Sequence record: PZ386980.1
Direction: 5' to 3' (one strand)
Length of the DNA: 64,000 nt
From: a phage
Position 1 is the stretch's first letter. Each line of letters begins with the position of its first letter. Under the pieces are notes generated by a model. The model saw nothing but the letters and a program-made list of their open reading frames with translations. It was not told the origin of the DNA and ran no database searches. Positions 17,917 to 40,923 of this stretch are shown here, one piece after another. The position numbers and the translations under genes are program-made.

Positions 17917-19236
17917 TCACACATAAAACACATCATAACGACCACGTGTTACACCAACATAAAGAAGCTGCTGAGCTAGTTCAGCATCTGCATAATGAAT
18001 ACAAGGCGTATAAATGAAAGCACGGTCTACAGACATACCCTGAGCTTTATGGAATGTTGATGCAGGAAGTGCTTTCACTTTACTAAACTGTGATTTAGCA
18101 TCCCAAAAATCACTCCACGGAGCCTTTCCGCCTTTATTCCAATTTTTATAAGTTTCTGCTGTTTTACCTAAAAACAGGTTAAACTTATATAGCTCTTCAT
18201 CAGATGAAATTATTTTAATCTTTTCACGATAATATTCATCATCGCCGTAAGTTTCTACTGTTAAATCCCAATGACGAATTAAGTATTCTCCAGGAACACC
18301 ACGAGCTTTAACAAACGTCGATGTATACTCTGCTTCTATAATACGAACTAATTGTCCATTATTAAAAATAATTTCTGATACAGGCTTTCCATCAATTTTA
18401 TATGTTTTAATTAACGGTTCTTGCATTACAATAATTTCACCGACAATAAAGTCTTTATCAGTTTCAAAAATCTTTTTACGAATAATGCTATTTAACTTGT
18501 CAACAGATTTATTCGTAAATGCCATTACGCGATTTTCAAACAAATCATCTAGTGATTTGACGATTGAAAAATAATTTACCATAAAATCGCGTAAAGCGGT
18601 ATCACCAGTAAATCCACGTACTCCATGCCCATCAACAACTTTATCATAAATCCATTTACCGTTGCGAACATCAGTAGCTACATCAATAATAGGAGCATTA
18701 CTGCGTTTAACTTCAGTAAGTTCACACTGATAAAAATCTTTGTGTGTAAAGAATGGACTGATATAAGCAGTATTTTCTCCTGGGTCAACAGGTCTAATTT
18801 GCTTATTATCGCCTATTCCAATTATAGTACACCACGGTGGGATAGTTGAAAGCAAAATTTTGAAGAGCTTTCTATCATACATTGACACTTCGTCGCAGAT
18901 TAATACCCTGCATTTAGCTAAATCTGGTACTTCTTTTTGTTCAAAAAGAACGTTTTCTTCATATGTTACTGGGTTAATTTTAAGAATACTGTGAATAGTA
19001 CTCGCTTCTTTCCCCGACAGTTTTGAAAGAATCTTTTTAGCTGCATGTGTAGGAGCTGCCAAAATGATACCAGTTTCACCCGTAGATATTAAAGCTTCAA
19101 TGATGAACTTAGTAAGAGTAGTCTTACCAGTACCAGCAGGTCCATTAATAGTTACATGATGTTTCTTTTCTTTAATAGCCCTCATAGCGATGTTAAAGGC
19201 GTTTTTCTGGCCTTCTGTCAAATCATCAAATGTCAT
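17917..19236 (-). CDS. dda: Dda DNA helicase (SF1)
   Basis: 439 aa, MTFDDLTEGQKNAFNIAMRAIKEKKHHVTINGPAGTGKTT (Walker A); matches T4 Dda. Confidence 0.92.
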   Translation of the reverse strand: MTFDDLTEGQKNAFNIAMRAIKEKKHHVTINGPAGTGKTTLTKFIIEALISTGETGIILAAPTHAAKKILSKLSGKEASTIHSILKINPVTYEENVLFEQKEVPDLAKCRVLICDEVSMYDRKLFKILLSTIPPWCTIIGIGDNKQIRPVDPGENTAYISPFFTHKDFYQCELTEVKRSNAPIIDVATDVRNGKWIYDKVVDGHGVRGFTGDTALRDFMVNYFSIVKSLDDLFENRVMAFTNKSVDKLNSIIRKKIFETDKDFIVGEIIVMQEPLIKTYKIDGKPVSEIIFNNGQLVRIIEAEYTSTFVKARGVPGEYLIRHWDLTVETYGDDEYYREKIKIISSDEELYKFNLFLGKTAETYKNWNKGGKAPWSDFWDAKSQFSKVKALPASTFHKAQGMSVDRAFIYTPCIHYADAELAQQLLYVGVTRGRYDVFYV

Positions 19237-19544
19237 CGGAAAGTCCCTGCAATTGGAATACTAACAATACGCCCAGTATCTAGAATTCGTTGATATAATC
19301 TTTGTGTATCTACATCAGGCTTAACATGTTTAACTTCTATTTTATTAAACCAAAACTTGCGTGGAGTCTCAACTAGTCTTGGAATTCCCATACCTAAAGC
19401 TAGTTTATATTGGTCTTTGAGAGTAGTAAAAACTCTATCAGCAATCTCTCTTTCAAAAAACACAGCAGGACGATGTTCATCAAGTGGAACTGGCGCCGTA
19501 AATCCGTCTTTGTCTCGGTAAACTATCGCATATACATAAACCAT
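19233..19544 (-). CDS. hypothetical protein (103 aa; dda.1 position)
   Basis: ORF track; ATGA overlap with dda. Confidence 0.5.
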   Translation of the reverse strand: MVYVYAIVYRDKDGFTAPVPLDEHRPAVFFEREIADRVFTTLKDQYKLALGMGIPRLVETPRKFWFNKIEVKHVKPDVDTQRLYQRILDTGRIVSIPIAGTFR

Positions 19545-19545
19545 A

Positions 19546-20292
19546 TTATCCTCGGATAAGTTTAAAAATTGAACAATTTAGCGGGTATCCTCTTTTCAGT
19601 TTAAGTTTATCAATAAAAGACAAGTTTTGATACCGCTCTACACCTTGAATAATTTTATCACACATATCATATTGCATTTCTGCTTCTGACAACTTTTTCA
19701 CAATTTTCCAATCCGAGCCTTTAAGAAGAACGTTCAGTTTAACAACTTCAGCGCCTTCTGCTATGCGAGAACCATCAATACGAGCTTTAAGTGCTATAAT
19801 CCTTAGCTTAATGTCAGAGGTCTGTTTTGATTTAGAAAGCTGAGAAATGTGTTCAATTCGATTTTCACGCTTTTTCTGTATAGCTTTAATTTGATTATAA
19901 GTCTTTTTGATTTTAGCCCATTTCTTTTCATCTAAATTTAGTTTATGAACTTTTTTCGCAGATGAACGACCAATTCGCAAAGCAAATAAATCCCGTTTTT
20001 CAATCAACTCTTCTAAAGTATAATCAGAACGAAATGTATTATACTTTTTCTTTACTGCAATAACATTCCCTTTAATGTATCCAATGTTATTATCAAAACG
20101 TTCTAATGATAATTTCTCTCCTTCAATACGATTATCAAAAGGTTCTCCTGAATAGGCACAAACTTTTTGATCTAAAATGTTCTTAATGTAATTGAAGTCT
20201 AAGTTAAAATCTTTAGAACGTCTTTTTGCAGATGCCTGAGTGTGCTCTAAACGACGTTTAATTTTACGAATTTGATTATTAGACAGTTTCAT
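19546..20292 (-). CDS. Srd-like protein (248 aa), by position and size
   Basis: lies between dda.1 and modA as srd does in T4; basic K/R-rich; sequence identity not verified. Confidence 0.4.
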   Translation of the reverse strand: MKLSNNQIRKIKRRLEHTQASAKRRSKDFNLDFNYIKNILDQKVCAYSGEPFDNRIEGEKLSLERFDNNIGYIKGNVIAVKKKYNTFRSDYTLEELIEKRDLFALRIGRSSAKKVHKLNLDEKKWAKIKKTYNQIKAIQKKRENRIEHISQLSKSKQTSDIKLRIIALKARIDGSRIAEGAEVVKLNVLLKGSDWKIVKKLSEAEMQYDMCDKIIQGVERYQNLSFIDKLKLKRGYPLNCSIFKLIRG

Positions 20293-24771: not shown

Positions 24772-24972
24772 ATGGTACAAAAATTAATGGCACTTGTTAA
24801 TGCCATCAAAGGTAATAAAAAGCGTATAGCTTTTACTATTTCTGCTATGGTAGGAATTTTACTCTGGAACTTTATTTTATCACCAATTGCAATTGCGCAT
24901 GGTGTTAATATTCCAGTAGTTACTCTTGATACATTTGTAGATTTAGCATTTGCTTTAGTTGGGTTAATTTAA
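24772..24972 (+). CDS. candidate plus-strand small membrane protein (66 aa)
   Basis: ATG 4 nt after AAGGAGGA; two hydrophobic segments; sits in the 56-61 gap, convergent with gene 61. Confidence 0.4.
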   Translation: MVQKLMALVNAIKGNKKRIAFTISAMVGILLWNFILSPIAIAHGVNIPVVTLDTFVDLAFALVGLI

Positions 24973-25997
24973 ATCTTAGCATATTTAGATAACCGCATTT
25001 TAGCCATCAACCCCTGTGCAATATTATTTTTCATATATTCCATAATTTGTTCAGGGGTTGCACCTTCCTTTCTAATCATATCATTAACATCTTTTGATTT
25101 CCAGGGAGATTTATCCCAAAACATAACCCTTTCTCCTGCATCAACTAATTTAGTCATTCGTTTGATAGTGTCAGGGTGACGAGGTTCATTATCTAAAACC
25201 CACACACGTCTATCTTTAAATGGAACAACTTCTAGGTCTAATTGACCACCTGTAATAGCTATACCATTTTCAATAAAAAGTGAATCTATAGGTCCTTCTA
25301 GAACATATACATCACCATCTTTAACTCGTTCGACTCCATAGATTTTTGTTGCTTCAGGATAAGCTTTGATAGTGATATATTTTTGGGGAGCATCTTTCTT
25401 TAATGCACGTCCTTGAAAAGACTCGGCTTTTCCATTAGCATTATAAATTGGAATAACAAGACGAGGCTCAGAAATTTCCTTTTTGTATGTTCCCGGTGCT
25501 ATGCTATTAACTAATTTAGGCCATTCAGTTGTAAACCAAAGATATTTCCATTTATCCTTTGGAATACAACGAGCTTTTACATATTTTATAATTGGATGGT
25601 CTTCCGCCAGTTTATCTAATCTAACACATGACGGAAGAGATTTAATCATTTTCTTCTCAGGTTGTTTAGGAAGTTCTTTAGGTTTTTCTACTGGACGACT
25701 TTTACCTTTTTCTTTTCTTATTTCAAAGATATACTCACGATATAAATCAGGTTCAAACTCCTTTAAATATATTCCGATTGGTGCATGATAGTTACAGTTA
25801 TAACAATGAATATTTCCTTCATTATTATCACCATAATACCATCCACGAGCTTTATTCTGGTCGGTTTTTGAATCTCCGCAAACAGGGCATCTAAACCGTA
25901 ATTTAAAAGTTGAACTATTATTTACTTGTGTGAATTTAGGTAAATGAGCCAATGCACGATACGCAAACTCATTATCAATCCAAGGTATTGATGACAT
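24969..25997 (-). CDS. 61: DNA primase
   Basis: 342 aa, MSSIPWIDNEFAYRALAHLPKFTQVNNSSTFKLRFRCPVCGDS (zinc ribbon); matches T4 gp61. Confidence 0.9.
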   Translation of the reverse strand: MSSIPWIDNEFAYRALAHLPKFTQVNNSSTFKLRFRCPVCGDSKTDQNKARGWYYGDNNEGNIHCYNCNYHAPIGIYLKEFEPDLYREYIFEIRKEKGKSRPVEKPKELPKQPEKKMIKSLPSCVRLDKLAEDHPIIKYVKARCIPKDKWKYLWFTTEWPKLVNSIAPGTYKKEISEPRLVIPIYNANGKAESFQGRALKKDAPQKYITIKAYPEATKIYGVERVKDGDVYVLEGPIDSLFIENGIAITGGQLDLEVVPFKDRRVWVLDNEPRHPDTIKRMTKLVDAGERVMFWDKSPWKSKDVNDMIRKEGATPEQIMEYMKNNIAQGLMAKMRLSKYAKI

Positions 25998-25999
25998 TT

Positions 26000-26164
26000 T
26001 TACTCTTCTTTTTCTTTAGATTCCTCTTTTTTCTTTTTAGGAATCTGTTCAGGACCTTTATTTACTACAGCACCTGATGTTGTTCCAGTAGAGATATTTT
26101 CAGGATTACCACCTGAATCTCCAGCTACCATATCTTCTTTAATAAATTCTTTATATGTTTTCAT
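26000..26164 (-). CDS. small hypothetical protein (54 aa)
   Basis: own translation MKTYKEFIKEDMVAGDSGGNPENISTGTTSGAVVNKGPEQIPKKKKEE... Confidence 0.4.
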   Translation of the reverse strand: MKTYKEFIKEDMVAGDSGGNPENISTGTTSGAVVNKGPEQIPKKKKEESKEKEE

Positions 26165-26165
26165 A

Positions 26166-26522
26166 TTAACCTCTATTCATAAAAGCATTAAAAATTTGGT
26201 CATCAATAGATGGAATAGCAACCTTTTCGGCATCATTTAGCAAATCATTAATTTCATCAGATAACATAACACATGTGCCTTTATTTCCTGTAATTGTTAC
26301 TGCACAATTACGAACGTTTTCTTTATCAAATTTTAGGTTAATATTTTCGTAGTGAAAATCCTTTAATGCCGAATATATCTTTAAAATGAAATTGTCTTTT
26401 ACTACAATAAACCCAACCTCACTATTAAAACATGGTTCATGGAAACTGTAATAAACCTTTTCATCTATAAAATCGTATGAAATTTTTTCCATTTTTAAAT
26501 ATGAAAATTCAGAACTATACAT
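26166..26522 (-). CDS. hypothetical protein (118 aa) with shared C-terminal cassette
   Basis: C-terminus ...SIDDQIFNAFMNRG almost identical to the next ORF. Confidence 0.5.
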   Translation of the reverse strand: MYSSEFSYLKMEKISYDFIDEKVYYSFHEPCFNSEVGFIVVKDNFILKIYSALKDFHYENINLKFDKENVRNCAVTITGNKGTCVMLSDEINDLLNDAEKVAIPSIDDQIFNAFMNRG

Positions 26523-26523
26523 A

Positions 26524-27165
26524 TTAACCTTTATTCATAAAAGCATTAAAAATTTGATCGTCAATAGAAACATTTACTTTAGACTGTTCTTCAAACGGTA
26601 ATTCATATCCACATATTACAATTTTGTGATCGATACCAAAATACACAGAAGCAATATGATTAATATTATTTTCAGTGAAATCTAAATCAACATCAATATC
26701 TTTTTGACTAACGCTCAAAGGATAATTAATACGAATAATTCGATTATCTTTAACAAAGATTCCACCGACATACTCTGTGTTGCGTTTAAAGTTTACACGT
26801 TTCCTAAATGAAAAATATTCAGGTTCTTTATGAGCCCGACTCATAGGACACAATGAGTAGCTAGAATAAGAGATGTCAAATCCTACACCTTCAATATGAG
26901 CCAACGTGTCATGATTAAACCAATTATAATCATATGCCAAATCCATTATATTGTAATATGTGAAAGGCACCGGATTAACATCATGTGTTGTACCTTTAAA
27001 ATCTGCCCAGGCAACGATTTCGTTATCTTTAACAATTACAAAAATTGTGCCAATAAGATATCCACGGTTATTTTCATCAGGCGTTATATTATAACATTGC
27101 GCATCAGGAAATTTACCGTATTTAAACGGTGGATTTTTGTGCATATAATAAATCATATTATTCAC
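26524..27165 (-). CDS. hypothetical protein (213 aa) with shared C-terminal cassette
   Basis: C-terminus ...SIDDQIFNAFMNKG. Confidence 0.5.
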   Translation of the reverse strand: MNNMIYYMHKNPPFKYGKFPDAQCYNITPDENNRGYLIGTIFVIVKDNEIVAWADFKGTTHDVNPVPFTYYNIMDLAYDYNWFNHDTLAHIEGVGFDISYSSYSLCPMSRAHKEPEYFSFRKRVNFKRNTEYVGGIFVKDNRIIRINYPLSVSQKDIDVDLDFTENNINHIASVYFGIDHKIVICGYELPFEEQSKVNVSIDDQIFNAFMNKG

Positions 27166-27451
27166 CTGTGATTTCGGTTACGATATTTTTGTTATTAAAG
27201 TTTTTATCGCAATACAGAACATAATTATACTGCATTACACCACCAGACTTAAGTTGTTTTTGCACTTCAGCTTTCATTTTAGGACGATCGCGCTCAACAA
27301 TATTCATAATATCCGCTTCAATTTGAGTTTCAACTTCAGTCTGATCTGCAGTCATAGACCATTCACACAAGTCTTTATCATATCCTGCCATAGCAGGCTG
27401 AGCAGCACAAGAAGCCAAAGTAAAAATTGTAGCAAAAATAAATTTTTTCAT
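27158..27451 (-). CDS. periplasmic or lipoprotein, possible Spackle (61.3 position)
   Basis: 97 aa; signal peptide MKKFIFATIFTLASCAAQPAMA; same size and location as T4 sp, identity by synteny only. Confidence 0.45.
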   Translation of the reverse strand: MKKFIFATIFTLASCAAQPAMAGYDKDLCEWSMTADQTEVETQIEADIMNIVERDRPKMKAEVQKQLKSGGVMQYNYVLYCDKNFNNKNIVTEITGE

Positions 27452-27459
27452 GATAATCT

Positions 27460-27512
27460 CCTCAGTAGTTTATGTTTATATAGTATCTCAATTTCCAACA
27501 AAAGTAAACAGC
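27460..27512 (-). promoter_or_regulatory. early promoter
   Basis: minus strand GTTTAC - 17 nt - GATACTATATAAAC. Confidence 0.45.
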
Positions 27513-27811
27513 TATTTTAAAACTTCTGCGTAATCACATGTTACAAACTGTTTCTCTAGCTTAACGATTTTACGAAAATACCTTTTATACTGACGAATCT
27601 GCCTCTTCGTAGGACGTACAGCAAACTTAATAAATTCCACTCGACCAAATGGAGGACTTTCTTCTGCTGGAATATCTAACACCAATTCCCATGTATCCGC
27701 AATAAGTGCTTTGAATTGAGTATTTTTCCTGACGTTATACGGAGTAGGTTTAAATAAAACAATATGCATATTATCCTCGGCAATCCACTTCGCACACTTT
27801 CTTGTCATCAA
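27512..27811 (-). CDS. hypothetical protein (99 aa)
   Basis: ORF track. Confidence 0.45.
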   Translation of the reverse strand: MMTRKCAKWIAEDNMHIVLFKPTPYNVRKNTQFKALIADTWELVLDIPAEESPPFGRVEFIKFAVRPTKRQIRQYKRYFRKIVKLEKQFVTCDYAEVLK

Positions 27812-27953
27812 TGAAAGCTTTAACTAATGCTTTATTAACTTCAGCATATTGAGTAGTAGCCCATTGAACGTCATCTTTCATCATTGTGATTTCTTTAGTA
27901 AACATGCTTTCATTCTTAAACCACCCCATAAAAACTACCTTTACCAATTCCAT
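27771..27953 (-). CDS. 60-aa protein at the dmd (61.5) position, possible Dmd antitoxin
   Basis: exactly 60 aa, immediately downstream of gene 41; assignment by size and synteny only. Confidence 0.4.
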   Translation of the reverse strand: MELVKVVFMGWFKNESMFTKEITMMKDDVQWATTQYAEVNKALVKAFIDDKKVCEVDCRG

Positions 27954-27974
27954 AACAATCTCCTCATTTAACCA

Positions 27975-28012
27975 ACAAGACTACTATACCATAGTCTTGT
28001 CAGCTTGTAAAC
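27975..28012 (-). promoter_or_regulatory. early promoter overlapping gene 41 stop
   Basis: minus strand GTTTAC - 17 nt - GGTATAGTAG. Confidence 0.45.
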
Positions 28013-29439
28013 TAAAATTTTAATTCATTTGCCAAAGCATCTAACTGAGCTCGAGCTGATTCATTTCTTTGATAGCGATTCTGTTCAGCCTGAATCTGTT
28101 GTGAACCTGCTACTTCACTCACTTCGGTTGGAGTAGAATCTTGTTCAATTTCTACCCATTTTTGATTTCCTTTTTGAACACCCATCAAAAACTTATTCCA
28201 CTTATTCTTATCACCATATCGTGATTTGATTTGCTTAATAAGTTGTTGTTCAGCAGCTGCTAGCTCCTCGGTTTCAATGACCGCAAGCATAAAATCAGCT
28301 GTTGCTGGAAGACCAGCAGATTCTGCAATATCGCTCATGTTAACATCGGAAGAGTCCCAAGCTTGTTTACCGACCTGTGCTGCAGTCCAAAGAACAGTTT
28401 CGGTTTCAACAGCCAGAGCACGCAATTCCTCTGCGATAGCTTTAACAGTTGTGTAACTATTTTCTGAATAAACTCTAATGCGGCAAGATTTACAAATACC
28501 TAGATAGTCGACAATAATGATTGTTGGAACAAAATTCTTTTTGAGCTTTAATTCATTTAAAAGTGATCGAAATGTATTAGCGTCTGCTCCACCAGTAGGA
28601 TATTGCTTAACGATTAAACGACCAAGGGTAGATTTCTCACGCCATTTTTCCATTTTTCCTTTATATTCAGCGTAAGAAATATGCCCATCATCAATGTCAT
28701 CAAGAGAAACATCAAGCATGTTAGCGTCAATACGCTTAGCACAGACTTCTTCTGCCATTTCCATGGAAATGTAAAGAACATTATGTCCGAGCTGTAAATA
28801 ATCTGCTGCTAATGAACACAATCCTAATGATTTACCAACGTTAACGCCAGCCATTAAAACGTTCAGTGTTCCAGTTTCAGCTCCGCCTTTCGTAATTTTG
28901 TTTAGAATTCTGAGTTTAAATGGAACTTTACGAGCTTTATTCATATAAGATAGCCAGCGTGCTTCGTAGTCATCCATCCAATCATGACCAACGTAGCTAT
29001 CAAATGAAATTGATAATGCTTGACGCATGATGTCAGGAATAGCACCAACATCCGGCATTTTCTTATTTCGTTTTTCCGGAGGAAGCTCAGCATTAGTTTG
29101 AATTTCGATTATTTTAGACGTAGCATTAAACATCGCCCTTTGCTGAACATATTTTTCTGTTTCTTTTACTAACCAGCTGTGGTCTTCTGGAGAATCGGCT
29201 AGTTTTGAAATAAGTGTTTTTACACCAGAATATTCCGTTTCAGTAAATGAACTATTTTCTAATGCAACATTTAACGCATTAATAGATGGAACGCTATGAT
29301 ACTCATTAACATGAGATTTAATTAATTTGAACGTATTTTTAGCTGGACCACTTTCAAAATATTCTGAATCCATATATGGCCAAACTTTTGAAAAATAAGC
29401 TTGATCAAATATAAGATGAGAAAGAATAATTTCTACCAC
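28012..29439 (-). CDS. 41: replicative DNA helicase (DnaB-like)
   Basis: 475 aa, MVEIILSHLIFDQAYFSKVWPYMDSEYF...; Walker A GVNVGKS; matches T4 gp41. Confidence 0.92.
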   Translation of the reverse strand: MVEIILSHLIFDQAYFSKVWPYMDSEYFESGPAKNTFKLIKSHVNEYHSVPSINALNVALENSSFTETEYSGVKTLISKLADSPEDHSWLVKETEKYVQQRAMFNATSKIIEIQTNAELPPEKRNKKMPDVGAIPDIMRQALSISFDSYVGHDWMDDYEARWLSYMNKARKVPFKLRILNKITKGGAETGTLNVLMAGVNVGKSLGLCSLAADYLQLGHNVLYISMEMAEEVCAKRIDANMLDVSLDDIDDGHISYAEYKGKMEKWREKSTLGRLIVKQYPTGGADANTFRSLLNELKLKKNFVPTIIIVDYLGICKSCRIRVYSENSYTTVKAIAEELRALAVETETVLWTAAQVGKQAWDSSDVNMSDIAESAGLPATADFMLAVIETEELAAAEQQLIKQIKSRYGDKNKWNKFLMGVQKGNQKWVEIEQDSTPTEVSEVAGSQQIQAEQNRYQRNESARAQLDALANELKF

Positions 29440-40209: not shown

Positions 40210-40923
40210 ATGAATTATAAACTAATTTATGAAAAGTTAATCTCTAATGCTAAATCTCGAAAACTTGATTGCTATACTGAATCTCATCACATTATACCAC
40301 GCTGTTTAAATGGCAGCGATGATGCTTCAAACTTAGTAGATTTAACACCGGAAGAGCACTATGTAGCTCATCAACTTTTAGTAAAAATTTATCCTTCTGA
40401 ACCAAAATTAATCTATGCTGCTAACATGATGACAGTTTCCACGAAATACGCTAAACGTAACAATAAAACTTTCGGTTGGATTCGTCGTAAACTCTGGGAA
40501 ATAGAAAAGAATAAAGAATTCTCCCAGGAGACACGAAAGAAAATGTCTGATGCAGTAGCTAATAAAGCAAGACTAACTTGTCCACATTGCGGTAAGTCCG
40601 GATTAAGCGGGAATATGAATCGATGGCATTTTGATAACTGCCCGAATCACCCTAATCCTAAAGTTAGACCACCGATGTCTAAAGAACACAGAAATAATAT
40701 CTCAAACGGGCTTAAAGCAATCATTCTTGAAGAAACATCCTGCGAATTCTGCGGAATGATAGGCAAGAAATGCGTTATTGCAGCGCATAGAAATTTCTGC
40801 AAGAAAAATCCAAATGGACGCAAGAAAACTGAAAAGACTGGTACTTGCGTCCATTGTGGTAAAGTTACCACTTTCGGAAATTTATCAAGGTGGCATAATG
40901 ATAACTGTAAGCACAAACATTAA
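40210..40923 (+). CDS. free-standing HNH homing endonuclease (237 aa), plus strand
   Basis: HNH motif ESHHIIPRCLNGSDDASNLVDLTPEEHYVAH; two C-terminal repeats CPHCGK...NMNRWHFDNC / CVHCGK...NLSRWHNDNC. Confidence 0.75.
   Translation: MNYKLIYEKLISNAKSRKLDCYTESHHIIPRCLNGSDDASNLVDLTPEEHYVAHQLLVKIYPSEPKLIYAANMMTVSTKYAKRNNKTFGWIRRKLWEIEKNKEFSQETRKKMSDAVANKARLTCPHCGKSGLSGNMNRWHFDNCPNHPNPKVRPPMSKEHRNNISNGLKAIILEETSCEFCGMIGKKCVIAAHRNFCKKNPNGRKKTEKTGTCVHCGKVTTFGNLSRWHNDNCKHKH

Follow-up and report, generated by a model that had tools for sequence, protein, structure and literature searches.

The stretch of phage DNA considered here, 64,000 nucleotides of sequence record PZ386980.1 (hereafter the window), carries on its minus strand the spackle gene sp, adfA (gene 61.2, encoding anti-DarT factor A), a short open reading frame (ORF) termed ORF118, gene 61.1 and the DNA primase gene 61 (Table 1). 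Positions 25900-27500 are 100% identical to RB51 and RB68 and 97-99% identical to many Tequatroviruses. Both adfA and ORF118 end in a copy of a 49-nt direct repeat, here called the cassette; the two copies are identical at 46 of 49 positions and start 358 nt apart. On the coding strand the cassette reads TCT ATT GAY GAY CAA ATT TTT AAT GCT TTT ATG AAT A[G/A]A GGT TAA T ATG, that is, 14 terminal codons (S-I-D-D-Q-I-F-N-A-F-M-N-[R/K]-G), a TAA stop, a single T and the ATG of the next gene. Thus 45 of the 49 nt (the 14 sense codons and the stop) belong to the upstream gene, and the final three are the next start codon. Two synonymous GAY codons and an AGA/AAA (Arg/Lys) difference account for the three mismatches. 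Beyond the 49 nt, nucleotide identity of the aligned gene bodies falls to 36-54%. The cassette matches the window at these two places and matched none of 100 dinucleotide-preserving shuffles, giving an expectation of zero chance matches.

The original prediction had drawn attention to a repeat of about 45 bp starting at 26161 and 26519. The repeat is real and, far from its copies differing substantially on exact alignment, nearly perfect, but it begins one base later, as the bases at 26161 and 26519 differ, and is 49 nt long. That each copy spans the start codon of the downstream gene, a stop codon and the last codons of the upstream gene, so that both proteins have the same ending in (R/K)G, agrees with our reading, in which 14 codons are counted and the tails match except for Arg/Lys. 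The proteins had been given as 118 and 213 residues. The former length stands, while the larger protein has 210 residues from the ATG at 27156, the start (MIYYMHK...) used by all annotated relatives and database proteins, and reaches 213 only from an upstream GTG.

Table 1. Genes and sequence features of the sp-61 interval, in positions of the window.
Feature	Position	Strand	Remarks
gene 61, DNA primase	24969..25997	-	served by P61
gene 61.1, 54 aa	26000..26164	-	translated from the downstream-cassette junction
ORF118, 118 aa	26166..26522	-	RB32ORF033c in the RB51 annotation; phrog_4122; single-unit paralog of the AdfA C-terminal half
adfA / gene 61.2, 210 aa, anti-DarT factor A	26524..27156	-	full-length Pfam AdfA match
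sp (spackle)	27158..27451	-	upstream neighbour of adfA
downstream cassette copy	26162..26210	-	ORF118 last 14 codons 26169-26210, TAA 26166-26168, T, 61.1 ATG 26162-26164
upstream cassette copy	26520..26568	-	adfA last 14 codons 26527-26568, TAA 26524-26526, T, ORF118 ATG 26520-26522
MotA-box region of P61, TTAATGCTTTT, about -35 to -25	26181..26191	-	Phe-Asn-Ala-Phe codons; register from T4 start 19122
-10 TAATAT of P61	26163..26168	-	spans ORF118 stop, spacer T, AT of 61.1 ATG
MotA-box region of duplicated P61-like promoter (predicted)	26539..26549	-	identical to downstream copy
-10 TAATAT of duplicated P61-like promoter (predicted)	26521..26526	-	
Shine-Dalgarno core GAGG for 61.1	26170..26173	-	Arg-Gly codons AGA GGT, 5 nt before ATG

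The two genes that end in the cassette are paralogs over about 106 residues and not unrelated genes with a common junction. The 210-residue protein matches the Pfam AdfA profile (PF23813) over its full length (E 9e-138, profile positions 1-211). ORF118 exceeds the gathering cut-off of the same profile (33.2 bits against 27; E 4e-8) at profile positions 129-211 of 211 only, and by BLASTP it is 38% identical to AdfA residues 114-213 (E 2e-10). ORF118 aligns solely to AdfA residues ~105-210 and does not have the two-unit architecture of ~210 residues. In an alignment of 20 sequences, the columns invariant across the AdfA and ORF118 groups are those of a G.I.VKDN.I block and of the tail. AlphaFold2 (AF2) models AdfA as two beta-sheet-plus-helix units (mean predicted local distance difference test score, pLDDT, 71) and ORF118 as one (pLDDT 78), and a Foldseek search with the ORF118 model retrieves AdfA and gp038 of phage VR25 (gp038 E 1.3e-4). 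Comparison of the AdfA N-terminal half with a C-terminal half/ORF118 profile (hhalign; probability 44%, E 2e-4) lends weak support to a putative internal duplication within AdfA. ORF118 behaves as a real gene: it is found in 334 phage records, has orthologs of ~45-47% identity at the same position in Gaprivervirus, and shows a ratio of nonsynonymous to synonymous divergence (dN/dS) of ~0.33 between its two Tequatrovirus alleles.

It is hardly credible that the 3' half of adfA was recently duplicated in tandem to give ORF118, whose body then diverged very fast in an arms race while its end remained unchanged. ORF118 does match the AdfA C-terminal half and immediately follows adfA, which is hypervariable in Tequatrovirus (T4-type and RB51-type alleles are ~74% identical as proteins). 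However, the paralog bodies are saturated at synonymous sites, with proportions of synonymous and nonsynonymous differences (pS and pN) of 0.78 and 0.48, the presence of Gaprivervirus orthologs at the same position indicates that the duplication is old, and the dN/dS of the ORF118 alleles reflects purifying and not runaway positive selection.

The peptide encoded by the cassette, SIDDQIFNAFMN(R/K)G in the window, is family-wide. DDQIFNAFM is unchanged in ~25 distinct cassette sequences, the family pattern being DDQIFNAFM[NK][RK][GD], and this invariant tail is found on no fewer than three strongly divergent kinds of body in Tequatro-, Mosig-, Gapriver- and related viruses: AdfA of three allele classes, ORF118 with its ortholog gp037, and the gp038 type. 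At this locus the Gapriverviruses VR25, SP18 and MN01 and a Yersinia phage also have a pair of neighbouring genes, a 145-residue gp038 type and the ORF118 ortholog, each of which closes with [VI]DDQIFNAFMKR[DG] followed by TAA-T-ATG. The same tail is present on Mosigvirus AdfA and in genomes having the gp038 type only. A scan of IMG/VR viral contigs with the back-translated tail yielded 16 loci, which add further cassette copies and are too few for statistics. Synonymous positions of the tail vary between genera (GCT/GCC/GCA, TTT/TTC, CAA/CAG, AGA/CGA); since DDQIFNAFM is constant while these sites change, the peptide is under purifying selection.

Given the above, the literal form of the original prediction, in which a mobile junction cassette was put onto two unrelated genes as a passive footprint of modular shuffling and so gave them one C-terminus, is very improbable. 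Identity does jump from ~40-50% to 94% at the cassette edge, and by BLASTP VR25 gp038, which has no Pfam match, has the 13-residue tail alone in common with AdfA or gp037. Against this, the genes in the window are homologous well beyond the cassette, gp038 is also retrieved as a fold relative, the tail is selected as protein, being kept amid synonymous change across genera, and the DNA that encodes it functions as a known promoter.

That promoter is P61, a MotA- and AsiA-dependent middle promoter of T4 (PMC2988021) with an experimentally mapped start site at 19122 (Marshall, Sharma & Hinton 1999, in Table 1 of PMC2988021). The consensus for T4 middle promoters is a MotA box of (a/t)(a/t)(a/t)TGCTTtA, centred near -30 and 12+/-1 bp from a -10 of TAtaaT (Hinton review). 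The RefSeq T4 record (NC_000866; 61.1 at complement(18966..19130), 61.2 at complement(19132..19758)) is without promoter features, and the register of P61 was set from the start-site coordinate together with two control promoters, P56/69 and Pdam, both of which show TATAAT in the same register. With +1 at 19122, TAATAT lies at -12 to -7, across the 61.2 stop, the spacer T and the AT of the 61.1 ATG, and TTAATGCTTT lies at -35 to -26, in the Asn-Ala-Phe codons of the 61.2 tail. As the T4 61.2/61.1 junction and the downstream copy in the window agree at every position of the cassette, the latter is, by sequence identity in the mapped register, P61, with a predicted transcription start at 26156, 8 nt inside 61.1. 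Both copies contain the MotA box TAATGCTTTT, which agrees with 9 of 10 consensus positions (the last base is T and not A), and in both it is followed at 12 bp by TAATAT, which conforms to the TAnnnT form of a -10. Relative to the downstream copy, the upstream copy retains an intact box and -10; of its three changes, one is at -17 and the other two precede the box. The upstream copy too would fire as a promoter, with a start predicted at 26514, 8 nt inside ORF118. A relaxed middle-promoter pattern occurs 24 times in the window, both cassettes included, against 7.9 expected (3-fold), and none of 100 shuffles reaches 24.

The cassette also holds signals for translation. The GAGG core is formed by the last two sense codons, and the TAA-T-ATG form of junction is common to sp/adfA, adfA/ORF118 and ORF118/61.1. 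Other kinds of signal were looked for as well: neither cassette contains a sigma70-type promoter match, no terminator-like sites occur in 25800-28100, and an RNA element was rejected, as folding z-scores of 0.04 and +2.36 reveal no structure beyond that of shuffled controls. As a separate observation, cassettes that precede ORF118 or its ortholog carry AAAGGT or [A/C]GAGAT and not [A/C]GAGGT (window 26521-26549 versus 26163-26191; also L021, L029, L030, L002, L023 and L025 of our set of related loci). These endings correspond to changes at promoter position -17 or -14 that also weaken the Shine-Dalgarno sequence, and they comprise at least two mutational forms in two genera. Possible reasons are selection for reduced expression, a lower identity of the repeats, or linkage alone.

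Because the demands of the tail, the promoter and the Shine-Dalgarno/stop/start junction fall on the same DNA, selection explains much of the identity between the copies. Whether it explains all of it bears on a rival account, in which identity is due only to those demands, the repeats have no role in recombination, and the different forms of the locus arose through unrelated illegitimate deletions and insertions. In keeping with such an account, variation among Tequatrovirus cassettes is confined to positions 9, 12, 38 and 41, all outside the MotA box and the -10. Constraints from the promoter and ribosome binding cover about one third of the synonymous sites of the tail. The two tails within a Tequatrovirus genome differ at 0-2 synonymous codons and orthologous tails between genera at ~4.2, while codon usage alone predicts ~5.5 differences (probability of two or fewer, 0.033; of none, 0.0005). 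In slur02, Kha5h and teqhad the two copies of a genome have no synonymous difference, despite paralog bodies that are saturated, and this is difficult to attribute to selection only.

The forms of the locus bear on the same question. Counted with junction-specific megablast queries, three forms are about equally common in Tequatrovirus. The two-gene form, recognized by its adfA-to-ORF118 junction, was found in ~158 records, and the T2-type form with ORF118 only, recognized by an sp-to-ORF118 junction, in ~141. The adfA-to-61.1 junction was found in 302 records, which include the 158 two-gene genomes joined across the insert, leaving ~144 true one-gene genomes. The sum of the first two forms, 299, is the number of close ORF118 matches. 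As to whether other T4-like genomes carry one or both units, a check that accompanied the original prediction, adfA only, both genes and ORF118 only are thus all common.

In the two-gene form, which is found with both T4-type and RB51-type adfA alleles, the distance between the cassettes never deviates from 358 bp, except that it is 361 bp in genomes with a second ORF118 allele. T4 (one gene) and teqhad (two genes), with flanks 98.9/98.6% identical, differ by exactly one 358-bp period, as do 101112UKE3-1 and R5505, whose flanks are 98.7/97.3% identical. A one-gene RB51-type phage (L003) has a chimeric cassette, with GACGAT as in the upstream copy at its 5' side and AGA as in the downstream copy at its 3' side, which is the expected product of a crossover from repeat to repeat. 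We infer that recombination between the repeats made the one-gene form. The second ORF118 allele (L019, Elenatom) differs from that of the window throughout its body, beginning with the codon that follows the ATG and ending with the one that precedes the tail, and its synonymous divergence (dS) is 0.51, about five times that of adfA (0.11) and 61.1 (0.10) in the same comparison. To judge from this divergence, it is an imported older sequence bounded by the cassettes. The allele types of adfA and ORF118 are found in every combination. Fewer than 50 bp of homology are enough for recombination in T4 (PMC2839356), so that the 49 bp of the cassette suffice.

An exact difference of one repeat period on two adfA backgrounds within nearly identical flanks, a fivefold rise in dS that begins and ends within a few nucleotides of the cassettes, and the chimeric cassette all speak against selection alone, and we consider that account unlikely. 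The idea of a recombination footprint at gene boundaries in the original prediction is upheld in that the cassettes coincide with the boundaries of gain, loss and replacement, and qualified in that much of the identity is kept by selection on the tail peptide, P61 and the junction.

The 49-nt repeat is the common 3' end of tandem AdfA-family paralogs, and we consider it probable that it holds three overlapping codes and doubles as recombination homology. The first code is the invariant C-terminal peptide, a predicted short helix flexibly tethered to a variable body. The second is the MotA-dependent P61 serving the primase gene, with its box in the Asn-Ala-Phe codons and its -10 across the Gly/stop/T/AT(G). 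The third would be the GAGG Shine-Dalgarno in the Arg-Gly codons with the TAA-T-ATG junction, coupling translation of the next gene. As all family members end in the cassette, two neighbours form a 49-bp direct repeat, which is sufficient homology for the T4 recombination system. In this way the cassettes would act as portable homology through which bodies may be precisely deleted, inserted or replaced, one intact P61 always being left before 61.1 and 61. Recombination at the cassettes is supported alongside selection.

Several points weigh against this explanation, and the first three of them speak for the rival account of selection alone. When constrained codons are removed, the copies in the window differ at 2 of ~9 free synonymous sites, which is compatible with chance and not clearly fewer than expected from it, and the case for homogenization at the DNA level rests on genomes such as slur02 that are mutually non-independent. 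Loss of adfA in the T2 type left a 12-nt remnant (TTAGAGGTTAGT) and not a full repeat, and therefore was not a repeat-to-repeat event. The boundary between T4-type and RB51-type adfA alleles, which would be expected at a cassette, lies instead ~170 nt into the gene. The P61 start was mapped in T4, which has a single copy, and the upstream promoter copy of RB51-type phages is a predicted one. Outside Tequatrovirus, the MotA core reads TGCCTT or TGCATT, and the promoter layer may be genus-specific. The low pLDDT of the tail helix (~52-60) leaves the reading of a tethered docking helix weak. Finally, T2, which has ORF118 and no adfA, becomes sensitive to DarTG1 when adfN is deleted (PMC11825919).

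The allele boundary inside adfA is a feature in its own right. Between the T4-type allele of L021 and that of the window, nearly all of the difference lies in the first ~170 nt (26986-27156, ~57 codons), counted from the sp/adfA junction, and over the remainder of adfA the two alleles are ~90% identical. The N-terminal part of AdfA looks like a module that is separately exchanged or fast-evolving. In two genomes, adfA is annotated as two split ORFs (Elenatom, L032, PP925844.1, 601-1223; Shigella phage CT01, L033, OK018184.1, 601-1163), apparently through a frameshift or an internal deletion; in some lineages adfA seems to be undergoing decay with the cassette and 61.1 still intact.

The components brought together at this locus are already known; the triple overlap, its duplication with a short AdfA paralog and its role as the boundary of a common three-state polymorphism are, to our knowledge, undescribed. 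In T4, P61 is present in one copy, while here and in ~158 database genomes there are two, 358 bp apart, the second standing before ORF118, and the overlap of P61 with an invariant protein tail is unmentioned in the literature covered. Translationally coupled stop-N-start junctions are likewise familiar, and TAA-T-ATG with GAGG 5 nt upstream is one of them, but an ordinary junction is not repeated nearly identically over 49 nt, nor does it overlap a promoter and a family-wide invariant peptide.

Promoter-early stem-loop (PeSL) cassettes mediate modular shuffling in T4-type phages (PMC2839356, PMC4122927) and resemble the cassette as short, repeated, promoter-bearing sequences that flank accessory genes and mark the edges of segments inserted, deleted or replaced through homologous recombination. 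A PeSL lies between genes and combines a strong sigma70-like early promoter (-35/-10, AT-rich upstream) with a stem-loop terminator, whereas the 49-nt cassette is coding, has a MotA-type middle promoter, and specifies both a conserved peptide and a junction for translational coupling. Membership in the PeSL class was rejected, as three of its four defining features (early promoter, stem-loop and intergenic position) are lacking and only the location at accessory-ORF boundaries is shared. The internal proteins of T4-type phages offer a different parallel: they too are fast-evolving counter-defence families arranged as small polymorphic arrays, whose members have very divergent bodies but a single short terminal peptide that is invariant and lies at the gene boundary. 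Their peptide is N-terminal with a known role in encapsidation, whereas the AdfA-family tail is C-terminal and overlaps a promoter.

What is known of AdfA bears on the possible role of its half-size paralog. AdfA reportedly acts by binding the toxin DarT1, and whether residue 164 is His or Arg determines its activity; in RB69 AdfA, R164H marks the specificity site and His at 164 enables DarT1 binding (PMC11257639). The AdfA of the window agrees with described AdfA (gp61.2; PMC11257639, PMC11825919) in its full-length profile match and in having His at the position aligned with RB69 164 (TENNINHIAS). ORF118 has the VKDN block, the helix of the position-164 equivalent and the tail in common with AdfA and passes the Pfam threshold, but it is half the size, consists of one unit and has Asn at the 164 equivalent (ENVRNCAV), although His is present in the variant P0005. 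T2 has been described as naturally without an adfA homolog (PMC11257639), yet it carries an ORF118 ortholog (L001, AP018813.1, 1501-1857) that scores 32.5 bits against the PF23813 cut-off of 27. Since T2, with ORF118 and without adfA, turns DarTG1-sensitive once adfN is deleted (PMC11825919), ORF118 alone is insufficient against that DarT1. ORF118 is a putative anti-defence protein that differs from AdfA in not by itself protecting T2 from the tested DarTG1.

In the PHROGs database, AdfA, ORF118 and the gp038 type are filed as separate unknown-function families that cross-match mainly via the tail. An exhaustive HMMER search of 1.84 billion representatives gave six matches, and a word-indexed protein search returned close relatives only. 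Therefore, the family is very small and confined to T-even phages and no distant homolog informs its function; no solved structure and no informative fold relative was found for the family.

In both AF2 models the tail forms a short helix that follows a linker with pLDDT <50, a pattern that would fit a tethered motif better than a core element, and the tail may be a docking peptide. It is conceivable, if rather doubtful, that the tail plugs interchangeable fast-evolving anti-defence heads (AdfA, ORF118 and the gp038 type) into one conserved partner, its DNA doubling as primase middle promoter and as head-swap homology; the partner could be a DarT-like toxin surface or a component of the phage replisome. 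If so, the sp-61.1 interval would be a self-contained plug-and-play counter-defence array, the C-terminal counterpart of the internal-protein/capsid-targeting-sequence system. The S-[LI]-D start and aromatic C-terminal character of the tail are loosely reminiscent of the ends by which gp43 and gp55, both encoded in the window, bind the clamp. A clamp-binding motif was nevertheless set aside as a low-probability lead, as the tail scored no similarity to the end of gp43 (ASLDFLFG) or to that of gp55.

Some observations concern the neighbours of the paralogs. Gene 61.1 carries capsid- or head-related names in several database records, and the ten N-terminal residues of its product (26135-26164, MKTYKEFIKE...) presumably resemble the capsid targeting sequence of T4 internal proteins, MKTYQEFIAE with a prohead-protease site after it. 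In the window, sp is preceded by a DUF7279 (61.4-like) gene (27512-27811). In Gapriverviruses, a DUF7279 copy stands directly after a cassette, downstream of the ORF118 ortholog (L002, 1859-2080), and the gene order of the interval therefore differs between genera. One viral contig (L017, IMGVR_UViG_2706795394_000001, ~2303, minus strand) has a gp038-type gene with the upstream-type ending CGA GAT and then DUF7279, without an ORF118 ortholog. This arrangement could be a deletion product with the crossover at the extreme 3' edge of the cassette, or the result of a non-repeat event. Elsewhere in the window, an ORF for a 237-residue protein (40210-40923) is the sole sizeable plus-strand ORF within a long minus-strand run of replication genes. 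Its match to HNH endonucleases is weak and below threshold (17 bits; cut-off 21.4), and it is a candidate mob-type homing endonuclease.

The cassette illustrates how dense overlap can be in T-even phages, with a protein tail, a promoter, a ribosome-binding site, a stop/start junction and recombination homology packed into the same 49 nt. For phage engineering this calls for caution, since deletion or recoding of the 3' end of adfA/61.2 or ORF118 also affects P61 and the translation start of 61.1. Our analysis also flags a half-size AdfA paralog in ~300 sequenced Tequatroviruses, T2 among them, as a candidate counter-defence factor, which may act against other DarT variants or other systems. 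Finally, it proposes a concrete mechanism by which counter-defence genes may be gained, lost and exchanged at this locus without disrupting expression of the essential primase gene.

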